Source: a bacterium
GTDB taxonomy: Bacteria > UBA8248
Assembly (NCBI GenBank): GCA_965213625.1
Contig: CBDBZU010000004.1
Span: 3,136,001-3,200,000, forward strand
DNA length: 64,000 bases
Reading direction: 5' to 3'
The translations under genes were made by a program, and so were the position numbers. Below the pieces are notes generated by a model, which had not been told where the DNA came from, searched no databases, and was given only the letters and a program-made list of their open reading frames with translations. Numbering within the stretch: position 1 is the stretch's first letter; each line of letters opens with the position of its first letter. Positions 6,808-30,832 of this stretch are shown here, piece by piece.

Positions 6808-9414
6808 ATGGGGAAGTTTTTCAATTTGCTCGGGGGATGGTTGCGATTCATATTCGCCCCGGAGTCGGCCATCCGCCGGGATATCGAGCCCGGCCTCCAG
6901 AAGAAAAACCTACCCATCTTCATATTTCTCTCTGCCATTCTCCTCGTCTACATCGTTATCTTCGCCGGGAGAAAATACAACTTCTACCTTCCCTATGAAA
7001 TCTCATGGGAATGGCAGGAGGTCGAATTCCCCGCTCTCGAGTTCTGGCTCTACGCCCTCATCTGGCTCTACGTATCGGGCCTGTGCATTCTGCCGAGGGT
7101 GACGATCCTCCTCTCCTCGTTCGTGTTCGCCGCCTATTTTCTATACGGCGCGGCGAACAGGGCGCCGGTGGATTTCGGTCTGGGTTTCGGCGAGGTCATC
7201 GTCTATATCCTCTCCCCGCTCCTCAGTGCGGAGATGGAGAAATCCCTCTCGGCGATATGGGAGACGCTCCACTTTCCGGGGCTCTCCATCTATGCGTATC
7301 ATTTCTACCTGCCCCTGTACGTGATCTTCACCGCCATCCTGACGTTCATCTTCTATCCGGCGCGAGCGGGCGCTCCGACGAGGCGGCCCTCCACCGTGGA
7401 CCTCCTCCTGTGCGCGGGCGTCGTCGTATTCACGGTGGAATACATCATGAACTTCGCCGACAGGGGAGACCGGGCGGGCCTCGTCCTCTGGCCGGACGTC
7501 GCCATGGGAACAATCGCCATCATCGTCTCGATAGAGATGTGCCGCCGTGTGCTGGGCTGGGTGCTTCCGCTGCTGGGTCTCTTTTTCTTTTACTACGCCA
7601 TGTACGGCAACTATTTTCCTGGACGGCTCCTGCACAAGGGGTTTTCCTATAACGAGGTTGTGAGCTTTATTTACGGGACGTCGGGTATATTCGGCGTCAT
7701 TGCGAACGTCTACGCGAGCTATGTGTTCCTGTTTATTCTTTTCGGCGTCTTTCTGGAAAAGACGAAGGTCGGCGACGTGTTCATCGACCTCTCCTACGCC
7801 CTGGTGGGCCGTCTGCGCGGAGGAGCCGCCAAGGCTTCTGTCGTATCGAGCGGCCTGGTGGGATCGGTGGTGGGAAGCGGGGCGGCGAACATCGTCATCA
7901 CCGGAACCTTCACGATCCCGCTCATGAAGCGAGCGGGCTACAAGCCCCACTACGCGGGAGCGGTCGAGGCGGTCTCATCCATCGGCGGTCACCTGCTGCC
8001 CCCCATCATGGGTTCGGCGGCCTTTCTCGTAGCGGCGTTCACCGAAACGGACTATGGGTGGATAGCGCTCATATCGCTCGTACCCGCGCTGATGTACTAC
8101 TTCTCGGTCTACATGTCTGTCCACTTCCGCTCGGGGATGGACGGCATCCACGGCCTCTCGAAAGAAGAGTTGCCCGAACTGCTGCCATTGCTCAAAAAAG
8201 ACGGCTACCTGCTTCTGCCGGTGGCGCTGCTTATCTGCCGGCTCGTCATCGGGCGCTCGCCGTTTGACGCGGCGCTTTGGTCCATCATCCTCGCGATGGT
8301 TCTGGGATTCTTCCGCGAGGACACACGCCTGCTGGCCCTGCCGCCGGTTCTCGCGCGCCTCGTTGGTCGTCCCGGATGGAGCACCCGCAACGACAGGCTC
8401 GAATACGAGGCCGCGAAACACCACAAGAAACTCATGGAATCAGGCAAGAGCCTGGAAGATGCCAACACCGAGGCGGAAGCCTATCTGGAAACAGCGAAGG
8501 CCGAGCCCGCCGGAAACCCACTCATGGAGAACTGGCCCCTGCTCGCCGGGCTGGGGCTGCTTATCGTGCTTCCGGTGGCGGGACATACCCTGCCTGAGAC
8601 GATCTTCTGGTCCGTGCTCGCGGCGGTGGTGCTCTCATCCCCTCGCGTTCTGGACGGCCTCGAGCGCGGCGCCGTCAACTCGCTCATCATCGGCGTGACG
8701 GCGGGCGTGATGGGCATCGTACTCGCAGGCGTTTCGATGCCCGGCCTCGGCATCAAATTCTCCTCGATCATCCTGAGCTACGCGTCCTTCCTCGACAACG
8801 CCCTGGGCATCACGGGAACCGCGCTCCCGGTGGCGATTCTGCTGTGCACCGTCGCCAGCTACATCATGGGGATGGGTATGACGATCACGGCAAGCTACGT
8901 GCTGCTCTCGATCCTTGCCGTGCCCGCGCTTGTGGAACTCGGCGTGCCGCTCCTGAGCGCGCACCTGATGATCCTCTGGCTGAGTCAGGACGCCTCGCTC
9001 ACGCCGCCCTTCGCCCTGGGCGCGTTTATTGCAGCGGGCGTGGCGGGCGCAGACCCGATGCGCACCGGCTTCGCTTCACTCAAACTCGGCAAGGCGCTCT
9101 ACATCGTCCCCTTCCTGATGGCCTACACCCCGATCAACATGACGCCGGGCTCGGAGTGGATCGACATCCTCATCGTATGGGGGAGCGGCTTCATGGGCTT
9201 TTTCTGCACCTCGGCGTCGCTCGAGGGCTACATGCGGAGAAAGCTCGAAATCTGGGAGCGGGTCGTCTTCGCCGTGGCGGGTGGGCTGCTGTTCTTCTAC
9301 GTGCCGTGGATGAAGATAACGGGCGCGATCATCATGGCCGTCATGGTCACCATCCAGTTCATGGGCGCGAAGGATGAGGGTGCTGCCTCGCCTAGACCTG
9401 CAGTGTCCTCGTAA
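6808..9414 (+). CDS. TRAP transporter 4TM/12TM fused permease (TAXI type)
   Basis: GIFG, FILFG, RGGAAK, GSGAAN, TGTFTIPLMKRAGY, AVEAVSSIGG, PPIMG, LTPP. Confidence 0.92.
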   Translation: MGKFFNLLGGWLRFIFAPESAIRRDIEPGLQKKNLPIFIFLSAILLVYIVIFAGRKYNFYLPYEISWEWQEVEFPALEFWLYALIWLYVSGLCILPRVTILLSSFVFAAYFLYGAANRAPVDFGLGFGEVIVYILSPLLSAEMEKSLSAIWETLHFPGLSIYAYHFYLPLYVIFTAILTFIFYPARAGAPTRRPSTVDLLLCAGVVVFTVEYIMNFADRGDRAGLVLWPDVAMGTIAIIVSIEMCRRVLGWVLPLLGLFFFYYAMYGNYFPGRLLHKGFSYNEVVSFIYGTSGIFGVIANVYASYVFLFILFGVFLEKTKVGDVFIDLSYALVGRLRGGAAKASVVSSGLVGSVVGSGAANIVITGTFTIPLMKRAGYKPHYAGAVEAVSSIGGHLLPPIMGSAAFLVAAFTETDYGWIALISLVPALMYYFSVYMSVHFRSGMDGIHGLSKEELPELLPLLKKDGYLLLPVALLICRLVIGRSPFDAALWSIILAMVLGFFREDTRLLALPPVLARLVGRPGWSTRNDRLEYEAAKHHKKLMESGKSLEDANTEAEAYLETAKAEPAGNPLMENWPLLAGLGLLIVLPVAGHTLPETIFWSVLAAVVLSSPRVLDGLERGAVNSLIIGVTAGVMGIVLAGVSMPGLGIKFSSIILSYASFLDNALGITGTALPVAILLCTVASYIMGMGMTITASYVLLSILAVPALVELGVPLLSAHLMILWLSQDASLTPPFALGAFIAAGVAGADPMRTGFASLKLGKALYIVPFLMAYTPINMTPGSEWIDILIVWGSGFMGFFCTSASLEGYMRRKLEIWERVVFAVAGGLLFFYVPWMKITGAIIMAVMVTIQFMGAKDEGAASPRPAVSS

Positions 9415-22460: not shown

Positions 22461-24674
22461 ATGAGCCAAATTAGACTGCGAATCTCGGTTATAGCTCTTC
22501 TAGCGGTTGTAGCTGCCGCCTCCTTCGGTTGTGGCGGAGGATCCGGCTCCGGCTCGGCGGCCAGCGGCGGTTTCATCCCTGCCGTGATACCGGGCAACGA
22601 CTAGCCGACCAGAAGTGGAGGTAGTGACGCCATCCTTGGCACTCCGCCATCGAATGGAGACGGTGGAAACGGAGCCGTCGGTTCGACGCAGAATCCACAA
22701 TCCGCGCAGCAACTGGTTCAAAACGGCAATCAGGGAGAAGACGGGGAAGAGAAACCCGGCAACTCCACAAACTCGACGACCGGCACTGAAAGCGAAAACA
22801 TCGTCATTGACGCTCCACCATCGAATGAAGGCGGGGGAAACGGAGCCGGCAGCCCAACACAGAATTCTAATACCGCACGACAAGGTCTAGGGGAATTTCA
22901 ACTACCTCCGGGGCATGGCATCGAGCCAGGCCTGATTGAAGTGCAGGGGGGTGTATCAGAAGAATTCGGCAATATTATAATCTCGTGCCCTTACACCGAC
23001 GGCTTCTCGAGTTGCTTCATCAATGTCGGGGTGAACGGCGTGGCGACCTACTCTGAAAACGGAACCGCCCCCAACTACAGGCATAGTCCACGCTATGAAT
23101 ACCTGGACATCCCTTTGCCCAGAGCCGTCGACTGGCAACAAGCGCCTGTAATAGACCATGGAGACATAATGCACGTTGGGGCCAATGTCGCGCCTCAAGA
23201 CGGCGTGTTGACCGAAGGAATCGCCCGCAACGGAGTAAGTGTTTCATACGGACAGGTCCGGGACGGCCTCGGGGCGGACAGACTCCTCGAATTTATGAAA
23301 CAGCATATTAGTATTGAAGAAAAGCTCGCCTATTCCGGCGTGAACAACGGCTCGGGTCTCGAAACCTTTCCCGAGCCCCCAACCATCCGTCTCGCTGAGG
23401 GAACCAGCGAGTTATATACAAAGTTTGCGGCGCACGCCGTTCAGTTGATCAACAGCGCCTTACCCATTGATAAGCGCATCACGCTAAGCATGGAGACTCT
23501 GCCGGCAGATGCGTCGAACGATGACATCCCAGAGGGGCAGATTCTTCTCAATTTCTCTAAACTCGCCAATCACACACAGTTGGGTGGTGCTTCAACTATT
23601 ACCAACACAGAATTTAATACCGAAACACAGCGTGATGAAGTCCAACAGACGAGCAAAGCCAGAACCACAATAAACGATGATTTATTTCGATTTGCCTTTG
23701 TGTTTAACCCAACGTCGGATAAGGAAGAACTGGCCGAACGTTGGGAGGGCAAATTATTGGATAGCCGGGTGTCGAATACGGACATGATCATCAAATGGTT
23801 CAACGATGGCATTTTGCTTTCAGTTATTGTTCACGAACTGATGCATACACTCGGATTTTATCATATCGACGACGTGCGATTTTCCGATTCAATTTTACAT
23901 CCGGAAGCAGAATCAAATAATGGCCAAGTACAAGTATATTCACCATACCTGGATGGGGCGGTAATCATGTTGTTCGTTTTCCCAAATGATACGGAGGAAT
24001 CAGGCCAATCCGGATATCTCCCAGCACAACGAAACGAAGGCTACATCATCACACCCAGAGCTAGATCCGTACACGGGCACGTCCTGTATCCCATCGACAG
24101 AGAGGCCCTGCTGGCGGCCTACAACAGACTCGCTCCAGGCACTCAGCCGGAAGAACTGACGGCGGAAAACTTAGGGTCTTGGAGCGACACGTCATTACAT
24201 CTGCGCGGGGATGTGGATGTTCGGGGCGGAGGGGCCTCATTCGGCGTCGCATTGAGAAACGGCTTCGCGCAGCCATGGGCCGCGGGTCCCTCACCGTGGA
24301 CGGACCTCCGGGACAACCGCTTTGTGTCGGGAAGCGCAACCTGGAACGGCGCTCTCCTGGGGGTCGATTTTTCATCGGAAACGATCTCTGGCGACGCTTC
24401 GCTCTCCGTCAATCTGACAAGTCTCACCGGGCGACTCGACTTCACAGGCTTGGAGAAATGGGGAGTGAACGAAGCGCCTGGAGCAGCCGGCAGCGGGACG
24501 ACGTGGGTCGATGGTGATCTGGGATACACGGTCCAGGTTCGCGGCAACACCTTCATCCAGACCGGCGGAGACGACGGCTATGTAACCGGCGCGTTTTTCG
24601 GCCCCGTCCACGAGGCCATGGGCGGCGTGCTCGAACGCGCAGACCTCTCGGCGGGCTTCGGCGGTAAGCGGTAA
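22461..24674 (+). pseudogene. Surface lipoprotein with metzincin motif and TbpB-like C-terminal barrel, interrupted by one in-frame TAG (22602-22604)
   Basis: RBS AAGGA, signal peptide ending ASFG-C, G/S/N-rich linker. The frame is open from 22605 into ORF 22941..24674. HELMHTLGFYH motif; C-terminus VTGAFFGP.HEAMGGVL...GFGGKR. Confidence 0.7.
22642..22848 (+). repeat. Imperfect 36-bp direct repeat within the lipoprotein linker
   Basis: 22642-22677 versus 22813-22848, 171 nt apart; peptides PPSNGDGGNGA / PPSNEGGGNGA. Confidence 0.75.
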
Positions 24675-26079: not shown

Positions 26080-26547
26080 TTAGATGCTCACCTGGAAATT
26101 CGGCAGGCGGACACCACCTCCCGCATCGGCAGACGCCGCGCTCAATTCCTCGAGCGTGGTCTCGCGCAGCGTCTTGTCTATGGCGTCTTCCAGTTTTTTC
26201 CACAAGGCGCGGCTCCAGCACACCGGAATGTTCGGGCACGGCGACGAGGGCGGCTCCTCACCGCAATCGACGGGCTGAATCGTCTCTCCTACCGCGCACA
26301 AAACATCGCGCATGTTGATCCCGGAGGGCGGCAGCGCCAGGATGTAGCCGCCTCCCGGTCCCCTCGTGCTGCTCACCAGAGAGGCCCTGCGCATCTTCAC
26401 GAACAATTGTTCGAGATAATGCTGGCTGATGCCGAGCTTGCCGGCTATCTGGGGCAAAGGAACGGGATGCGTCTGCGAATGCCTGGCCAGCTCAATCATG
26501 GCGAGCACGGCGTATCGTCCCTTGGTCGATATCTTCATCGGCGGCAT
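26080..26547 (-). CDS. Rrf2-family transcriptional regulator, IscR-like with three Cys
   Basis: MKISTKGRYA, HYLEQLF, STRGPGGGY, C-x8-C-x5-C. Confidence 0.9.
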   Translation of the reverse strand: MPPMKISTKGRYAVLAMIELARHSQTHPVPLPQIAGKLGISQHYLEQLFVKMRRASLVSSTRGPGGGYILALPPSGINMRDVLCAVGETIQPVDCGEEPPSSPCPNIPVCWSRALWKKLEDAIDKTLRETTLEELSAASADAGGGVRLPNFQVSI

Positions 26548-26569: not shown

Positions 26570-27385
26570 TCATGGCTGAACGAGCGCTCCGCGCTTCATG
26601 GGGAATTTCGCTTGCCCGCGCTCGGCGAGCGCGCAGACGGGACAATCCGGGTCCTGGGCCACATCCACGCTCCCGACGGCGTTTTTCCACAAATCAGCCG
26701 TCATCAGCCTGTTCGACCAGGCGGGATCGAGCCCCACCAGAACACGCAGCGCGTCTGCGGCCTGCGCCATGCCCACGAAACCGGCCACCGCGCCGAAAAC
26801 GCCCGCATCCCCGCAGTCGAGGCCGCGCGCGTTTGCGCCCTCCTCGCCTACCAGACACCTCAGACACGCGCTCTCACCCGGCAGAATCGTCATCATTTGG
26901 CCGAAAAAGCGCAAGACGCCCCCCATCACCCACGGCCTGCCCGCTTCGGCGCAGGCTTCGTTCAGCGCGAGTTTTGTGGCCAGATTGTCGCTGCCATCGA
27001 CGATGACGTCATAAGGCGCGATGATTCTGGCGACGTTCCCGCTCGTGAGTTTCTGAGGAATCTTGTCCACAGCCACCTCGGCGGAAAGCCTGAATATGGA
27101 ATCAGCGCCTGAGTCCACTTTCAGGCGGCCGATGTCTTCGGTGCGGTGGAGAATCTGGCGCGCGAGGTTGTCGAGCGTCACGGCGTCGTGATCCGCAAGC
27201 CCGATGCGGCCCACGCCCGCCACGGCCAGGGCCAGCGCCGCAGGGCAGCCCAGGCCGCCGACGCCCACGATTAGCGCGGATGAGGCCGCCAGGGCGTTAT
27301 TCCAACTCACGCGTGCCGTGGATGTGCTTGCGGACGCTGGCGGCGCTTTATCGGGCAACCCCTTGCGAGGAAAATGAAGACTCAT
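26570..27385 (-). CDS. ThiF/MoeB-family E1 adenylyltransferase, catalytic core intact but lacking the N-terminal RYxRQ/H helix
   Basis: GVGGLG, DHDAVTLDNLARQ, GRLK, DGSDN, CLRC, DCGDAGV, CPVC; ATGA overlap with the JAB gene stop. Confidence 0.88.
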   Translation of the reverse strand: MSLHFPRKGLPDKAPPASASTSTARVSWNNALAASSALIVGVGGLGCPAALALAVAGVGRIGLADHDAVTLDNLARQILHRTEDIGRLKVDSGADSIFRLSAEVAVDKIPQKLTSGNVARIIAPYDVIVDGSDNLATKLALNEACAEAGRPWVMGGVLRFFGQMMTILPGESACLRCLVGEEGANARGLDCGDAGVFGAVAGFVGMAQAADALRVLVGLDPAWSNRLMTADLWKNAVGSVDVAQDPDCPVCALAERGQAKFPMKRGALVQP

Positions 27386-27876
27386 GCGCCCGCCTCCTCG
27401 AAAATTTCCAGCTCGTTCTCGATAAAGGTCTTTTGCTCCGCATCCCAGTAATACACCTTCTGGCCAAGTACGGCGCCTTCGCGCACGCTCATGACAACGT
27501 GCTCGGCATCCGGGAACGCCGGAATATCCCCGAAAGGAACCGCCGCATCCACGTCTTCCTGCGAAAAATAGGCATCCTCGTCCGGGTGGCTGTGGAATAT
27601 GCCGCGAACCACCTCGCCCGCCTTCTCCGCTTCTCTCACGATGCGCTCGAACTCGAAGGGATCGATCAGAAAGGCGCGCCGCGCCGTCCGTGGATATATT
27701 TCCGGGTCCTTCTCGTGCATCTCGTTCTGCACGTTCTTACAAGGCTGGAGTGCGAGCGTTTCAACTTTGCCCTCCAGCCCAGGCGGGGGACCGATTATCA
27801 ACCCGCAGCACTCATCGGGATACGCCTCTCGCGCGTGATGGTGCATCGCCTCCACCTGTTCAAGTGTCAGACGCAA
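27382..27876 (-). CDS. JAB/JAMM (M67) metallopeptidase, Mec-like
   Basis: YPDECCG and FHSHPDEDAYFSQED (E...HxHx7SxxD). Confidence 0.92.
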   Translation of the reverse strand: MRLTLEQVEAMHHHAREAYPDECCGLIIGPPPGLEGKVETLALQPCKNVQNEMHEKDPEIYPRTARRAFLIDPFEFERIVREAEKAGEVVRGIFHSHPDEDAYFSQEDVDAAVPFGDIPAFPDAEHVVMSVREGAVLGQKVYYWDAEQKTFIENELEIFEEAGA

Positions 27877-27887
27877 AACAAGCCTCC

Positions 27888-28826
27888 CTAGCGCGCTTCG
27901 CTCAAGTACCTGTCCCCCCCGTCGGGGAGCAGGGTGACGATAACGCCCTTCCCTATCTGCTTCGCCACCTCGCGCACGCCCACGAGCGCGGCTCCCGCCG
28001 AGTGGCCGATGAAGAGGCCCTCTTCTTTCGCGATGCGTTCGGCGAGATCGTAGCTTTCCTCGGTGCTCGCCAGAATCAGGTTGTCGTGCACGCTTTCATC
28101 GTAAATCTCCGGGCGTATGGCCGTGGGGATGTGCTTCATGCCCTCCAAACCATGAAATGATTCCGAGGGCATAACCGCATACACCACGACATCCTGCTTC
28201 CTTGCCTTCAAGCCGCGCCCCGTGCCCACCAGGGTGCCCGTGGTGCCGAGACCCGCAACGAAGTGCGCCACCCGCCCGTCGGTCTGCTCCAGAATCTCGA
28301 CCGCCGTTGTCTCCACGTGTGCGAGCGGATTGGCGGGGTTGTCGTACTGGCAGGGTAAAAAGTATTTTTCCGGCTCCTCGCGGTACATCTTCGCCGCGAG
28401 GCGCTGCGCGCCGTCCGAACCCTCCAGGGGATCAGAGAGAACGATGTCGGCCCCGTAGCCCTTGAGCGTCGCCTTGCGCTCGTCGCTCGCGTTCGCAGGC
28501 AAGACGAGGCGGATGGGAATCCCGAGTGCGGCGCCTATCATGGCGTACGCGATGCCGGTGTTCCCGCTCGTGGAATCCAGGAGAATCTTGCCGGGGCGCA
28601 ACTGGCCCGTTTCCAGGCCGTCTTTCACCATGAAGAGCGCCGGCCTGTCCTTCACCGAGCCGCCCGGATTGAACCACTCCGCCTTGGCGTAGACCTCAAC
28701 GTCCGGGAATTCGATCTCGAACAACTTGATCTTGAGCAACGGGGTGTTGCCGATACACTTGATTATCGGGGAATCCTCCAGGTTTCTGAACGCGCTCGCG
28801 GGATTCTCCACCGTCGATTCGACCAT
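27888..28826 (-). CDS. Cysteine synthase family protein (CysM / sulfur-carrier-dependent type)
   Basis: IGNTPL, NPGGSVKDR, TSGNTG, QYDNPAN, GLGTTGT, GLEGMKH, PDGGDRYLS. Confidence 0.88.
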   Translation of the reverse strand: MVESTVENPASAFRNLEDSPIIKCIGNTPLLKIKLFEIEFPDVEVYAKAEWFNPGGSVKDRPALFMVKDGLETGQLRPGKILLDSTSGNTGIAYAMIGAALGIPIRLVLPANASDERKATLKGYGADIVLSDPLEGSDGAQRLAAKMYREEPEKYFLPCQYDNPANPLAHVETTAVEILEQTDGRVAHFVAGLGTTGTLVGTGRGLKARKQDVVVYAVMPSESFHGLEGMKHIPTAIRPEIYDESVHDNLILASTEESYDLAERIAKEEGLFIGHSAGAALVGVREVAKQIGKGVIVTLLPDGGDRYLSEAR

Positions 28827-28859
28827 TGATATGGCCCTCGCACTTTGCTCCTGAAACTC

Positions 28860-29507
28860 TCAGGAAAGGTTCGCACGCGCCTCCATTAGGCCATGCGAAA
28901 AATCGAATCGGGCCTGCACAGTCGACCCCACTGTATCCGTCTCATCCACCAGATGCCTTAAAGTTCTGGCGGCCAGCCATGCGCCCAAAGCGCCCTGGGC
29001 CGCCGTTGAGGCTGACCCTACTTGAGGCGCCATGTTCGGCTTCTCGAAAACGCCGGGGCCTTCTGAAAACTCGCCCGCCTCACCACGGCTCATGCCTCGT
29101 ATATCGAATTTTCCCATTAACTTGACCGTCTCGATATTTCCGGCGGATTCATCGCCCAGCCGGATGAGGACATCGAAATCCTTTCCCGCCACTTCACCCG
29201 GATGAATCGGAACCAGCCTCGAATCGGGATTTAGCCTCTTGAGGCCATTGCCCAGGCTGCCGCCATAGAAGGCGCAAAGCGGCGATTCCCGCTTGAGCCC
29301 ATCGCCTCCATCGAGCGCACACCAGCCGATGCGTCCCACGCCCGCAGCGGCCAGATAGGCCAGGGCCATGAGCGCCGCGCTTTCCTCATCCTCAGAAAAG
29401 ACAATGAGGACGGACGAGGCGAGCAAGCGCTCCTGGCCGACCCCTCCCACGCCGGGGAGTAGTACGTGGCGGCTGTAGCGCTGAATCTGCTCTTCGCTCA
29501 GACCCAA
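28860..29507 (-). CDS. Degenerate ThiF/MoeB-like protein retaining the N-terminal RYSRH helix but lacking ATP- and Zn-binding motifs
   Basis: LSEEQIQRYSRH, GQERL, YLAAAGVG, RLNP and GALGAWLA are retained. GxGxxG, NLxRQ, DxxDN and CxxC are absent. Confidence 0.75.
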   Translation of the reverse strand: MGLSEEQIQRYSRHVLLPGVGGVGQERLLASSVLIVFSEDEESAALMALAYLAAAGVGRIGWCALDGGDGLKRESPLCAFYGGSLGNGLKRLNPDSRLVPIHPGEVAGKDFDVLIRLGDESAGNIETVKLMGKFDIRGMSRGEAGEFSEGPGVFEKPNMAPQVGSASTAAQGALGAWLAARTLRHLVDETDTVGSTVQARFDFSHGLMEARANLS

Positions 29508-29540: not shown

Positions 29541-29819
29541 TTAGAGGCCGCCCGCAATGGCCGGCACGATGGAGACCTCATCCCCATCGCTCACCGCCGT
29601 CCCCTCGCCCTGCAGGAAGCGGATGTCCTCCTGGTTCACATAAATGTTCACGAAGCGGCGCAGCTTGCCCTCCTCGTCATAGAGGCGCTGGCCGATGCCC
29701 GCGAACTGGTTGTCGAGATTTGCGAGCACTTCCTTCACGTCCGCGCCCGCGATATCCACGGCGTCCTGCTGCTGGGTGAACTCCTGTAAAGGTGTCGGAA
29801 TACGAACCGTTACCGCCAT
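29541..29819 (-). CDS. MoaD/ThiS/CysO-family ubiquitin-like sulfur carrier
   Basis: VRIPTPL, LRRFVNIYVN.EDIRF, C-terminus VPAIAGG-L. Confidence 0.93.
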   Translation of the reverse strand: MAVTVRIPTPLQEFTQQQDAVDIAGADVKEVLANLDNQFAGIGQRLYDEEGKLRRFVNIYVNQEDIRFLQGEGTAVSDGDEVSIVPAIAGGL

Positions 29820-29872: not shown

Positions 29873-30832
29873 CTAACGAAAATGCTGCTCCAGACTATAA
29901 TATCTCTCCCAGCCGTCGGGTATGACGACCACCACGTTTTCCTCGGGACTCATCCGCCGCGCCACCTCCAAAGCGGCGCTAACCGCCGCGCCCGCCGAAA
30001 TACCTGCGGCCATGCCCTCCTCGCGGCTTAAGGCCTTGCTCATGTCGTATGCGTCCGAATCGCTCACCGGCATCACCTCATCAATGATCTCCCGGTTGAG
30101 AACGGCGGGAATAAAGCCCGCGCCGATACCCTGAATCTGGTGCGGGCCGGGTTCTCCGCCCGAAAGAACAGGGGACGCGGCGGGCTCCACTCCCACGACG
30201 AGCGTTTCGGACCGCCTCTCCTTCAGGACCTCGCCGACTCCCGTAATGGTGCCACCCGTCCCCACGCCCGCCACGAAGGCATCCACCGCCTCCGCGCCCA
30301 TATCGCGCAGAATCTCGCGCGCCGTGGTTCTACGGTGGATTTCCGGGTTGGCCGGGTTGTTGAACTGCTGGGGCATGAAGTAGTCCGGGTTCTCATCCAA
30401 AATGGCTTCCGCCATCACGAGGGAGCCGTACATGCCACCCTCGCTCGAGCTGAATACCACCTCGGCCCCGTAGCCCGTGAGCAGGGATTTGCGCTCGTGG
30501 CTCATGCTCTTGCTGAGCACGATAATCGTCCTGTAGCCGCGAATGGCGCCGATGAGCGCCAGGCCTATCCCTGTGTTTCCGCTCGTGGGTTCGATGATCG
30601 TTCCACCGGGCCTCAAGAGACCGCGCCGTTCGCCGTCGAGCACCATGCTGAGCGCGATGCGATCCTTCACGCTTCCGCCGGGGTTGTACTGTTCGAGCTT
30701 TGCGAAGACGCGCGCGCCGGACGCATCCGGCAGGCGCTGCAGTTGGACGAGGCTCGTGCTTCCGATGCGATCGATGAGCGAGGGAAGCGCCCTTAGAATC
30801 TGGGGCGGACGGCCCCGGGTGCCCAATGCCAT
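29873..30832 (-). CDS. cysK: Cysteine synthase A
   Basis: NPGGSVKDRIA, EPTSGNTG, QQFNNPAN, GVGTGGT, HQIQGIGAGF, GISAGA. Confidence 0.88.
   Translation of the reverse strand: MALGTRGRPPQILRALPSLIDRIGSTSLVQLQRLPDASGARVFAKLEQYNPGGSVKDRIALSMVLDGERRGLLRPGGTIIEPTSGNTGIGLALIGAIRGYRTIIVLSKSMSHERKSLLTGYGAEVVFSSSEGGMYGSLVMAEAILDENPDYFMPQQFNNPANPEIHRRTTAREILRDMGAEAVDAFVAGVGTGGTITGVGEVLKERRSETLVVGVEPAASPVLSGGEPGPHQIQGIGAGFIPAVLNREIIDEVMPVSDSDAYDMSKALSREEGMAAGISAGAAVSAALEVARRMSPEENVVVVIPDGWERYYSLEQHFR

Follow-up and report, generated by a model that had tools for sequence, protein, structure and literature searches.

Gene organization and anatomy of proteins A and B

The window analysed here is a stretch of 64,000 nt from a bacterial genome of the GTDB lineage UBA8248 (assembly GCA_965213625.1, contig CBDBZU010000004.1, positions 3,136,001 to 3,200,000); the genome amounts to 4.15 Mb in 4 contigs, and homologues with a name come from Nitrospinae/Nitrospinota. 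The minus strand of the window carries a tightly packed operon, read from its open reading frames (ORFs) with families assigned by Pfam and NCBIfam, in which seven genes follow each other in the order CysK, ubiquitin-like protein (Ubl), A, CysM, JAMM, B and Rrf2 with intergenic gaps of -4 to 53 nt (Table 1). ThiF, MoeB and MoeZ are textbook symmetric homodimers, and asymmetric activating enzymes (E1s) with one active site are regarded as a eukaryotic hallmark. Here we describe A and B, two ThiF/MoeB paralogues that are likely to be the subunits of a heterodimeric adenylyltransferase with one active site.

Protein A has no match in Pfam at E≤0.01, and the NCBIfam models for MoeB, MoeZ and UbaA cover only its residues 3-66, with no score above 46 bits where the cut-offs are 266 or more. 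Residues 2-66 align to Uba4, MoeB and ThiF when the PDB is searched with phmmer, and Arg13 of A is the counterpart of MoeB Arg14 and ThiF Arg11. The catalytic motifs are gone: hhalign against a B/ThiF profile (probability 99.5%) places FSEDEES and a three-residue insertion at the P-loop site instead of GxGGxG, NLxRQ is absent, the DxxDN site reads LGDES without the catalytic Asp, and C63 and C78 are the only cysteines, hence neither CxxC is present. What A keeps is an N-terminal helix (residues 5-20, with RYSRH at 10-14), two dimer helices (47-56 and 167-186) and a conserved C-terminal segment, VGSTxQARFD. R10, Y11, S12 and H14 are found in 30/30 orthologues, and position 13 is Arg in 28 and His in two.

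The AlphaFold2 model of the A monomer is of moderate confidence, with a mean predicted local distance difference test (pLDDT) of 68 and a predicted template modelling score (pTM) of 0.72. Foldseek matches it best to Uba4 (6yub; E 6e-9, query TM-score (TMq) 0.63), followed by ThiF (1zud) and MoeB (1jw9), with E-values of 6e-9 to 4e-7 and TMq of 0.59-0.66 over the three; SAE1 and APPBP1, the inactive subunits of eukaryotic E1s, also match at lower rank. As modelled, A is a whole ThiF fold despite the loss of its motifs. We also considered A as the N-terminal piece of a split gene, which is ruled out by the full ThiF fold of the model and by the only 33 nt that separate A from CysM. In both A-type entries with a source name the protein is labelled 'hypothetical protein', and B would pass as an ordinary MoeB, so that the annotation of the pair can be corrected.

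Protein B matches PF00899 with 208.1 bits (cut-off 28.1), its residues 30-250 lying on profile positions 16-238 of 238, and its core is typical of MoeB/ThiF, with 137 bits to 1jw9 and 135 bits to 1zud. It carries GVGGLG (G41-G46), NLARQ (R76), K89, DGSDN (D133), CLRC (C174/C177), CPVC (C248/C251) and C191, which aligns with the crossover-loop Cys of MoeB/ThiF, and these motif residues are invariant across the orthologue alignment. The protein is collinear with MoeB and ThiF, and has neither an inserted catalytic-cysteine (CYS) domain nor a ubiquitin-fold domain (UFD). The N-terminal RYxRQ helix is absent in 29 orthologues, many of which begin about 10 residues ahead of strand beta1, and the first ~15 positions of PF00899 remain unmatched in B. 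A hidden N-terminal helix was rejected: the frame 5' of the ATG overlaps JAMM and is not ThiF-like, and no R[YF]xR[HQ] motif occurs in any frame in the 600 nt upstream of B.

The complementary anatomy of A and B is repeated in 29 orthologous pairs, and the pattern is thus more than chance. Both halves of it had been put forward in a sequence-only reading of the stretch, and hhalign, phmmer and the alignments bear them out for A, as do the start of the PF00899 match at position 16 and the 29 orthologues for B. The same reading had an arginine of the A helix acting in trans; RYSRH does hold the equivalent of MoeB Arg14, more precisely in its second arginine, Arg13, and it is this residue that the two orthologues replace by His.

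Joint distribution and selection

The A family is small, with 8 representatives at E≤1e-30 among 1.84 billion. Of 51 genomes surveyed in the phylum, 30 have full-length A; B-type genes were present in 29 of these 30 and absent from all other f1 genomes, and in the exception, G022, the contig ends at JAMM. The JAMM-containing operon itself occurs in 42/51 genomes, with both A and B in 30, neither in 11 and one cut by a contig end. The 11 operons that lack A also lack B and have the order CysK-Ubl-CysM-JAMM-Rrf2 (10 are complete, and that of G011 is cut inside CysM). A without B, or B without A, was found in no genome, though the two genes occupy two separate sites of the operon, and the co-occurrence check proposed along with the sequence-only reading thus found none apart. 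A genome of another family, G009, has an N-truncated B together with an A-like gene after Ubl that keeps GLGGVG, has lost the downstream motifs and is cut by the contig end.

On a tree of concatenated CysK, CysM, JAMM and Rrf2, five changes between the both and neither states suffice, at least three of them forced by starred branches, and none of 500 label shuffles reached as few. With the tree rooted on G009, the simplest reading is a history of several independent joint losses of A and B. Lineages without the pair presumably fall back on the housekeeping rhodanese-MoeB. Two operons differ in copy or content: in G038 (L152 5073-5294) the CysM of an operon without A/B has shrunk to a 73-aa fragment, and G029, with a stated contamination of 16%, carries two copies of the whole A/B operon (contigs C6 and C8).

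Ratios of nonsynonymous to synonymous substitution (dN/dS) were calculated pairwise by the Nei-Gojobori method (NG86), and are rough estimates at a median dS of 0.4-0.8. Values for A were 0.36 over the whole protein, 0.19 for residues 1-66, 0.48 for 67-165 and 0.40 for 166-215; those for B were 0.255 overall, 0.205 in the core (30-255) and 0.89 in residues 1-29, and the neighbouring operon genes gave 0.085-0.14. The estimates indicate that A is under purifying constraint, strongest in its N-terminal third, as the sequence-only reading required of a functional subunit. That A is a functionless, decaying remnant of a duplicated ThiF gene, as the loss of all catalytic motifs, the missing Pfam match and the highest dN/dS in the operon might suggest, is therefore extremely improbable: its ORF is intact in 30 genomes at identities down to about 40%, 34 positions are invariant, the dN/dS values are those of a constrained protein, above all over the N-terminal 66 residues, and the gene is lost only jointly with B.

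Predicted A:B complex

A complex of B, ATP and A was modelled in three runs from our own alignments, together with three controls. The runs gave ipSAE values of 0.91, 0.91 and 0.90, and the best of the controls 0.01; the benchmark for that ipSAE mark (reached by 58/80 solved complexes and 2/110 mismatched pairs) serves only as a rough guide to models built with our own alignments and a ligand. The runs share at least 91% of their contacts, with partner pLDDT of at least 78. On the A side the interface comprises residues 6, 9-14, 16-18 and 20 (the RYSRH helix), 47-56, 167-184 and 197-212, and on the B side 48-56, 71-83 (the NLARQ segment with the ATP-binding Arg76), 193-214 and 222-239. The model sets the N-terminal helix of A onto the NLARQ segment of B, and the C-terminal VGSTxQARFD segment of A, which is of low confidence in the monomer model, touches B in the complex.

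The predicted interface takes up 25% of the residues of A and holds 18 of its 34 invariant positions; mean conservation in A is 0.83 at the interface versus 0.685 elsewhere (Mann-Whitney U test, p=8e-6). In the model, A still offers a ThiF-type dimer face compatible with B. This is a statement of compatibility, not of preference over B:B, because A:B was the only pairing modelled among A:B, B:B, A:A and B:MoeB. The complex prediction suggested earlier thus came out with the A helix on NLARQ, and it is silent on which pairing is preferred.

The contact pairs listed are symmetric under the relation B residue = A residue + 30, which places B203/A173 and B206/A176 on a pseudo-twofold axis. At B206 all 29 orthologues have Met, a residue found there in 0/91 canonical ThiFs (T in 48, S in 13, I in 12, V in 9, others in the remainder), and at B203 Phe stands in 23/29 orthologues versus 2/91 canonical ThiFs. 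Facing them in the 29 orthologues are Ala (25) or Ser (4) at A176 and Ala (20) or Val (9) at A173. The two positions vary together, Ala at A173 going with Phe at B203 in 20/20 genomes and a non-Phe residue at B203 with Val at A173 in 6/6, in a covariation that is phylogenetically clustered. Such a pattern of large against small residues on the axis would disfavour both B:B and A:A.

These observations bear on the possibility that B is a self-sufficient, TcdA-like homodimer without an arginine-finger helix, and A a non-catalytic accessory (a scaffold for carrier or CysM, or a regulator) that is co-inherited through the shared pathway. B does keep all catalytic and zinc motifs. Passages of PMC13139853 describe the fingers of MoeB (Arg14) and ThiF (Arg11) as not essential, E. 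coli TcdA as lacking one and the R59A mutation of Tcd1 as barely altering activity, and the substitution of His for Arg13 in two A orthologues is in line with a dispensable finger. Nevertheless, a B homodimer seems unlikely to us: A retains exactly the dimer elements of ThiF, its invariant residues cluster at the modelled interface with B, and A and B are never found apart. In addition, Met206 and Phe203 of B oppose Ala/Ser176 and Ala/Val173 of A, whereas B:B would bring Met against Met at a position where none of the 91 canonical ThiFs has this residue.

The only other ThiF in the source genome is the housekeeping rhodanese-MoeB (L081), also the sole other carrier of the N-terminal helix, and B might pair with it instead, with A doing something else or competing. 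Such a partner would donate both the helix and a rhodanese domain for sulfur transfer, the domain that the operon lacks, and the operons without A/B presumably depend on it. We regard this pairing as very unlikely, since it leaves the selected helix and dimer helices of A and the joint loss of A and B unexplained, and would confront the bulky axis residues of B with the T/S-type residues of MoeB rather than with the small ones of A.

Operon type and proposed mechanism

A ThiS/MoaD-like carrier ending in Gly-Gly, a JAMM peptidase and a CysM-type synthase are found together in one operon, as in the CysO/CysM/Mec+ type. In 30/30 orthologues the Ubl has exactly one residue beyond Gly-Gly (L in 14, R in 13, also V, A and G), which implies that its C-terminus must be trimmed, presumably by the JAMM protease of the operon. 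Searches with Pfam and NCBIfam found a rhodanese domain in neither A nor B and no E2-like gene among the seven genes of the operon. From this gene content, the operon is of the CysO/CysM type, and A/B is predicted to be a sulfur-carrier adenylyltransferase, not a conjugating E1. The Rrf2 gene is syntenic across all operons seen. In a promoter and terminator scan of the operon, counts were not above those in shuffles. Outside the operon, the window also contains an ORF of 577 aa (22941-24674, plus strand) with an HExxH-like motif (VHELMHTLGF), located in the stretch of lowest GC content (0.516 versus ~0.6).

Table 1. Genes of the operon in gene order, with positions in the window
Gene product	Position	Strand	Characteristics
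CysK-type cysteine synthase, first gene	29873..30832	-	319 aa; PALP PF00291, 254 bits; TIGR01139 (cysK), 398 bits, above the cut-off of 351
ThiS/MoaD/CysO-like sulfur-carrier Ubl	29541..29819	-	92 aa; ends AIAGG-L; PF02597, 63.7 bits
A, degenerate ThiF/MoeB-fold protein, proposed inactive subunit	28860..29507	-	215 aa; TTG start
CysM-type cysteine synthase	27888..28826	-	312 aa; PF00291, 214 bits; TIGR01138 (cysM), 342 bits, below the cut-off of 394
JAMM/Mov34 (Mec+-like) metalloprotease	27382..27876	-	164 aa; PF14464, 71 bits; stop overlaps the start of B (ATGA)
B, catalytically complete ThiF/MoeB adenylyltransferase	26570..27385	-	271 aa; without N-terminal helix; residues 1-29 a variable extension
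Rrf2 (IscR/CymR-like) regulator, last gene	26080..26547	-	155 aa; PF02082, 122 bits

In the mechanism that we propose, the JAMM protease would first trim the single residue that follows Gly-Gly in the Ubl. B would then bind ATP/Mg together with the C-terminal Gly-Gly of the carrier and adenylate it, while A, the dead ThiF-fold paralogue, would be the other half of the dimer that enzymes of the ThiF type require. The RYSRH helix of A, with Arg13, would pack in trans on the NLARQ/ATP site of B, which has no helix to return to the dead site of A. After thiocarboxylation, the activated carrier would serve CysM in cysteine synthesis, on the pattern of the CysO/CysM/Mec+ route of mycobacteria. A passage of PMC12596934 describes the complete active site of ThiF as composite, one monomer contributing its N-terminus and the other its C-terminus. 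A probably provides not so much a single arginine as its helix and its half of the dimer, given the non-essential fingers of MoeB and ThiF in the cited passages of PMC13139853 and the His found in place of Arg13 in 2/30 orthologues.

Several points weigh against a heterodimer of this kind. B might work without a donated helix, by analogy with MoeB and ThiF, where the passages cited describe the finger as non-essential, and with TcdA, where it is absent, and the finger residue itself is not fully conserved in A. The operon has no rhodanese domain for the sulfur-transfer step. The score of the complex may reflect memory of solved MoeB/ThiF homodimers; the arguments from contacts and interface conservation are partly circular, the model having been built from the same alignments, and conservation in B is not significantly higher at the interface than in the core (0.863 versus 0.814, p=0.08). 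Moreover, the rate of evolution of A exceeds that of the neighbouring genes (dN/dS 0.36 versus about 0.1). Finally, the co-occurrence of A and B concerns one operon in one clade and few events, and replacement of whole operons could mimic joint loss.

Taking both sides together, we consider the two-subunit enzyme probable. The sequence-only reading had already proposed an obligate A:B heterodimer with one active site that acts on the co-encoded Ubl, and joint presence and absence, the complex model, the conservation of the A interface, the asymmetry of the axis residues and the purifying selection on A all point the same way. Its obligate character by way of the arginine finger is weaker than was stated, in view of the passages of PMC13139853 and of the His variants.

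Comparison with known E1 systems

In SAE1/UBA2 (SUMO) and NAE1(APPBP1)/UBA3 (NEDD8), two ThiF-fold chains, one inactive and one active, share one adenylation site, and the same arrangement is predicted for A/B. The N-terminal arginine of the inactive subunit reaches the active site in E1s with an inactive adenylation domain (IAD), according to a passage of PMC10557695, as we propose for A. Of the features of a canonical conjugating E1, A/B has the inactive and active adenylation modules at the level of sequence and the heterodimer as a model; CYS domain, UFD and E2 are absent. Indeed, A/B differs from SAE and NAE in that B has no CYS/SCCH insertion or UFD, the operon has no E2, the substrate would be a sulfur-carrier Ubl in a cysteine-synthesis operon, and the origin of the pair appears independent and lineage-specific.

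Among bacterial enzymes, BilD of the antiviral BilABCD system is alike in having inactive and active adenylation domains, with Arg9 donated by the IAD (in a passage of PMC10557695). BilD is a single chain with a CYS domain and an E2 partner that carries out protein conjugation, whereas A and B are two genes split by CysM and JAMM, without conjugation machinery. A passage of Chambers et al. (PMC10557695) presents all known bacterial E1-like proteins as homodimers except BilD, the single chain that unites an IAD and an active adenylation domain (AAD). Full-text literature searches, of incomplete coverage and with supplements not included, found no two-gene bacterial ThiF/MoeB heterodimer, and none of the papers listed on this subject for Nitrospina mentioned that name. 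The sequence-only reading was aware of no characterised bacterial example; within these searches this holds for two-gene enzymes and not for single-chain IAD+AAD E1s, since BilD has been characterised.

Closest in logic is yeast Tcd1-Tcd2, the ct6A dehydratase, a pair of ThiF-fold paralogues with complementary residue loss in which, according to passages of PMC13139853, the finger arginine comes from Tcd1 and the catalytic Arg and Asp residues lie in Tcd2. It differs in being eukaryotic, in its tRNA t6A substrate and in the little effect that the same source gives for the finger mutation R59A. In gene content (Ubl, cysteine synthase and JAMM) the operon resembles mycobacterial CysO-CysM-Mec+-MoeZR, and corresponds to operon type 4c/4d in the sections of Iyer et al. 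2006 (PMC1779556) that catalogue operons with a ThiS/MoaD protein, a rhodanese-fused E1-like enzyme, a JAB peptidase and cysteine synthase. In mycobacteria CysO is served by MoeZR, according to PMC3227635. The known MoeB, ThiF and MoeZR enzymes form homodimers in which both sites are active and a rhodanese domain is usually present; here a dead and a truncated paralogue would divide the E1 function between them, and neither has a rhodanese domain.

If this holds, A/B would be a natural two-gene bacterial heterodimer of the asymmetric, one-site type that bacteria have so far shared with eukaryotes only through the single-chain BilD. It would let one ask what a helix and arginine finger supplied in trans add to catalysis, and how a Met/Phe versus Ala axis enforces heterodimer specificity.

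Origin of the pair

A locus with the same operon order, L019, has full-length, motif-complete ThiFs at both the A and the B position; it is Nitrospinota by its NCBI label, and its genome, G055, is grouped in a separate phylum set of 17 genomes. At a further locus, L070, a full-length ThiF stands at the position of A. In a ThiF tree, the B clade (97, starred, with G009) branches off on a long stem within a clade (96, starred) that includes the JAMM-adjacent ThiF of L019. Ubl- or CysK-adjacent ThiFs give the N-terminus of A slightly better scores than do JAMM-adjacent ones, a weak signal, and the orthology of A to the Ubl-adjacent copy of L019 is a matter of synteny only. Between the first ThiF and CysM, L019 also has two small ORFs (103 and 112 aa, 6862-7511) with no counterpart in the window.

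The likely ancestors of the pair are two complete paralogues, ThiF genes of full length in the operon positions now occupied by A and B, which then degenerated in complementary ways. It is confined to one family-level clade and looks derived, a convergent parallel to the eukaryotic E1s and not their precursor; of the two relations to SUMO and NEDD8 E1s that had been envisaged, parallel or precursor-like, the first is therefore the one that stands. With full-length relatives at L019 and joint loss in sister genomes, how a symmetric E1 became asymmetric can be tested directly, on proteins that are small and soluble.

Related degenerate ThiF-like proteins

The A profile also retrieves many ThiF-like proteins of ~200-260 aa that carry the N-terminal helix, the YLAAAGVG helix and mostly two CxxC and, judged by regular expression, have no P-loop or NLxRQ. 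Such proteins make up 48 of the 78 matches of at least 190 aa with the N-terminal helix among the best 150, and 51 of the 107 newly numbered ones (P0263-P0369) among the 120 matches listed. An alignment of 32 of them has R10, Y11, R13, G21, G24, Q25, A52, G53, G55, N89 and two Cys as its invariant positions; NCBIfam cut-offs are reached by none, and no specific family emerges. P0127, P0130, P0136, P0152, P0177, P0183, P0188 and P0333 are examples, metagenomic, diverse and unnamed. Where source names are given, they are Binatia and Margulisiibacteriota, for proteins that have lost P-loop and NLxRQ, and Symbiobacterium, for a variant that keeps a P-loop-like motif.

A scan of metagenomes with P0136 gave one locus at 27% identity, probably canonical, and tblastn of plasmids with P0333 gave canonical moeB/thiF only. 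Scans with the A3 profile of the phyla of G055 (17 genomes) and G051 (120 genomes) returned essentially canonical-length proteins only among the matches listed. The degenerate proteins may be inactive subunits elsewhere. A broader proposal, which we put forward tentatively and hold to be doubtful, is that stand-alone dead ThiF-like subunits with only the finger helix, dimer helices and zinc site are widespread in bacteria, and that one-site heterodimeric E1-like enzymes arose repeatedly, through duplication followed by complementary decay, in the sulfur-carrier pathways of prokaryotes. If true, the A/B pair of the Nitrospinaceae would be the first case for which genomic evidence is clear, and a living model of the step to the eukaryotic IAD/AAD architecture.

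We note that in 12 of the 17 genomes of the G055 phylum the housekeeping rhodanese-MoeB has an in-frame TGA at the crossover-loop Cys (...PSUSEAGVLG...), as in L158 (126-1721, minus strand), which suggests a selenocysteine form of the enzyme. MoeB is listed among prokaryotic selenoproteins.

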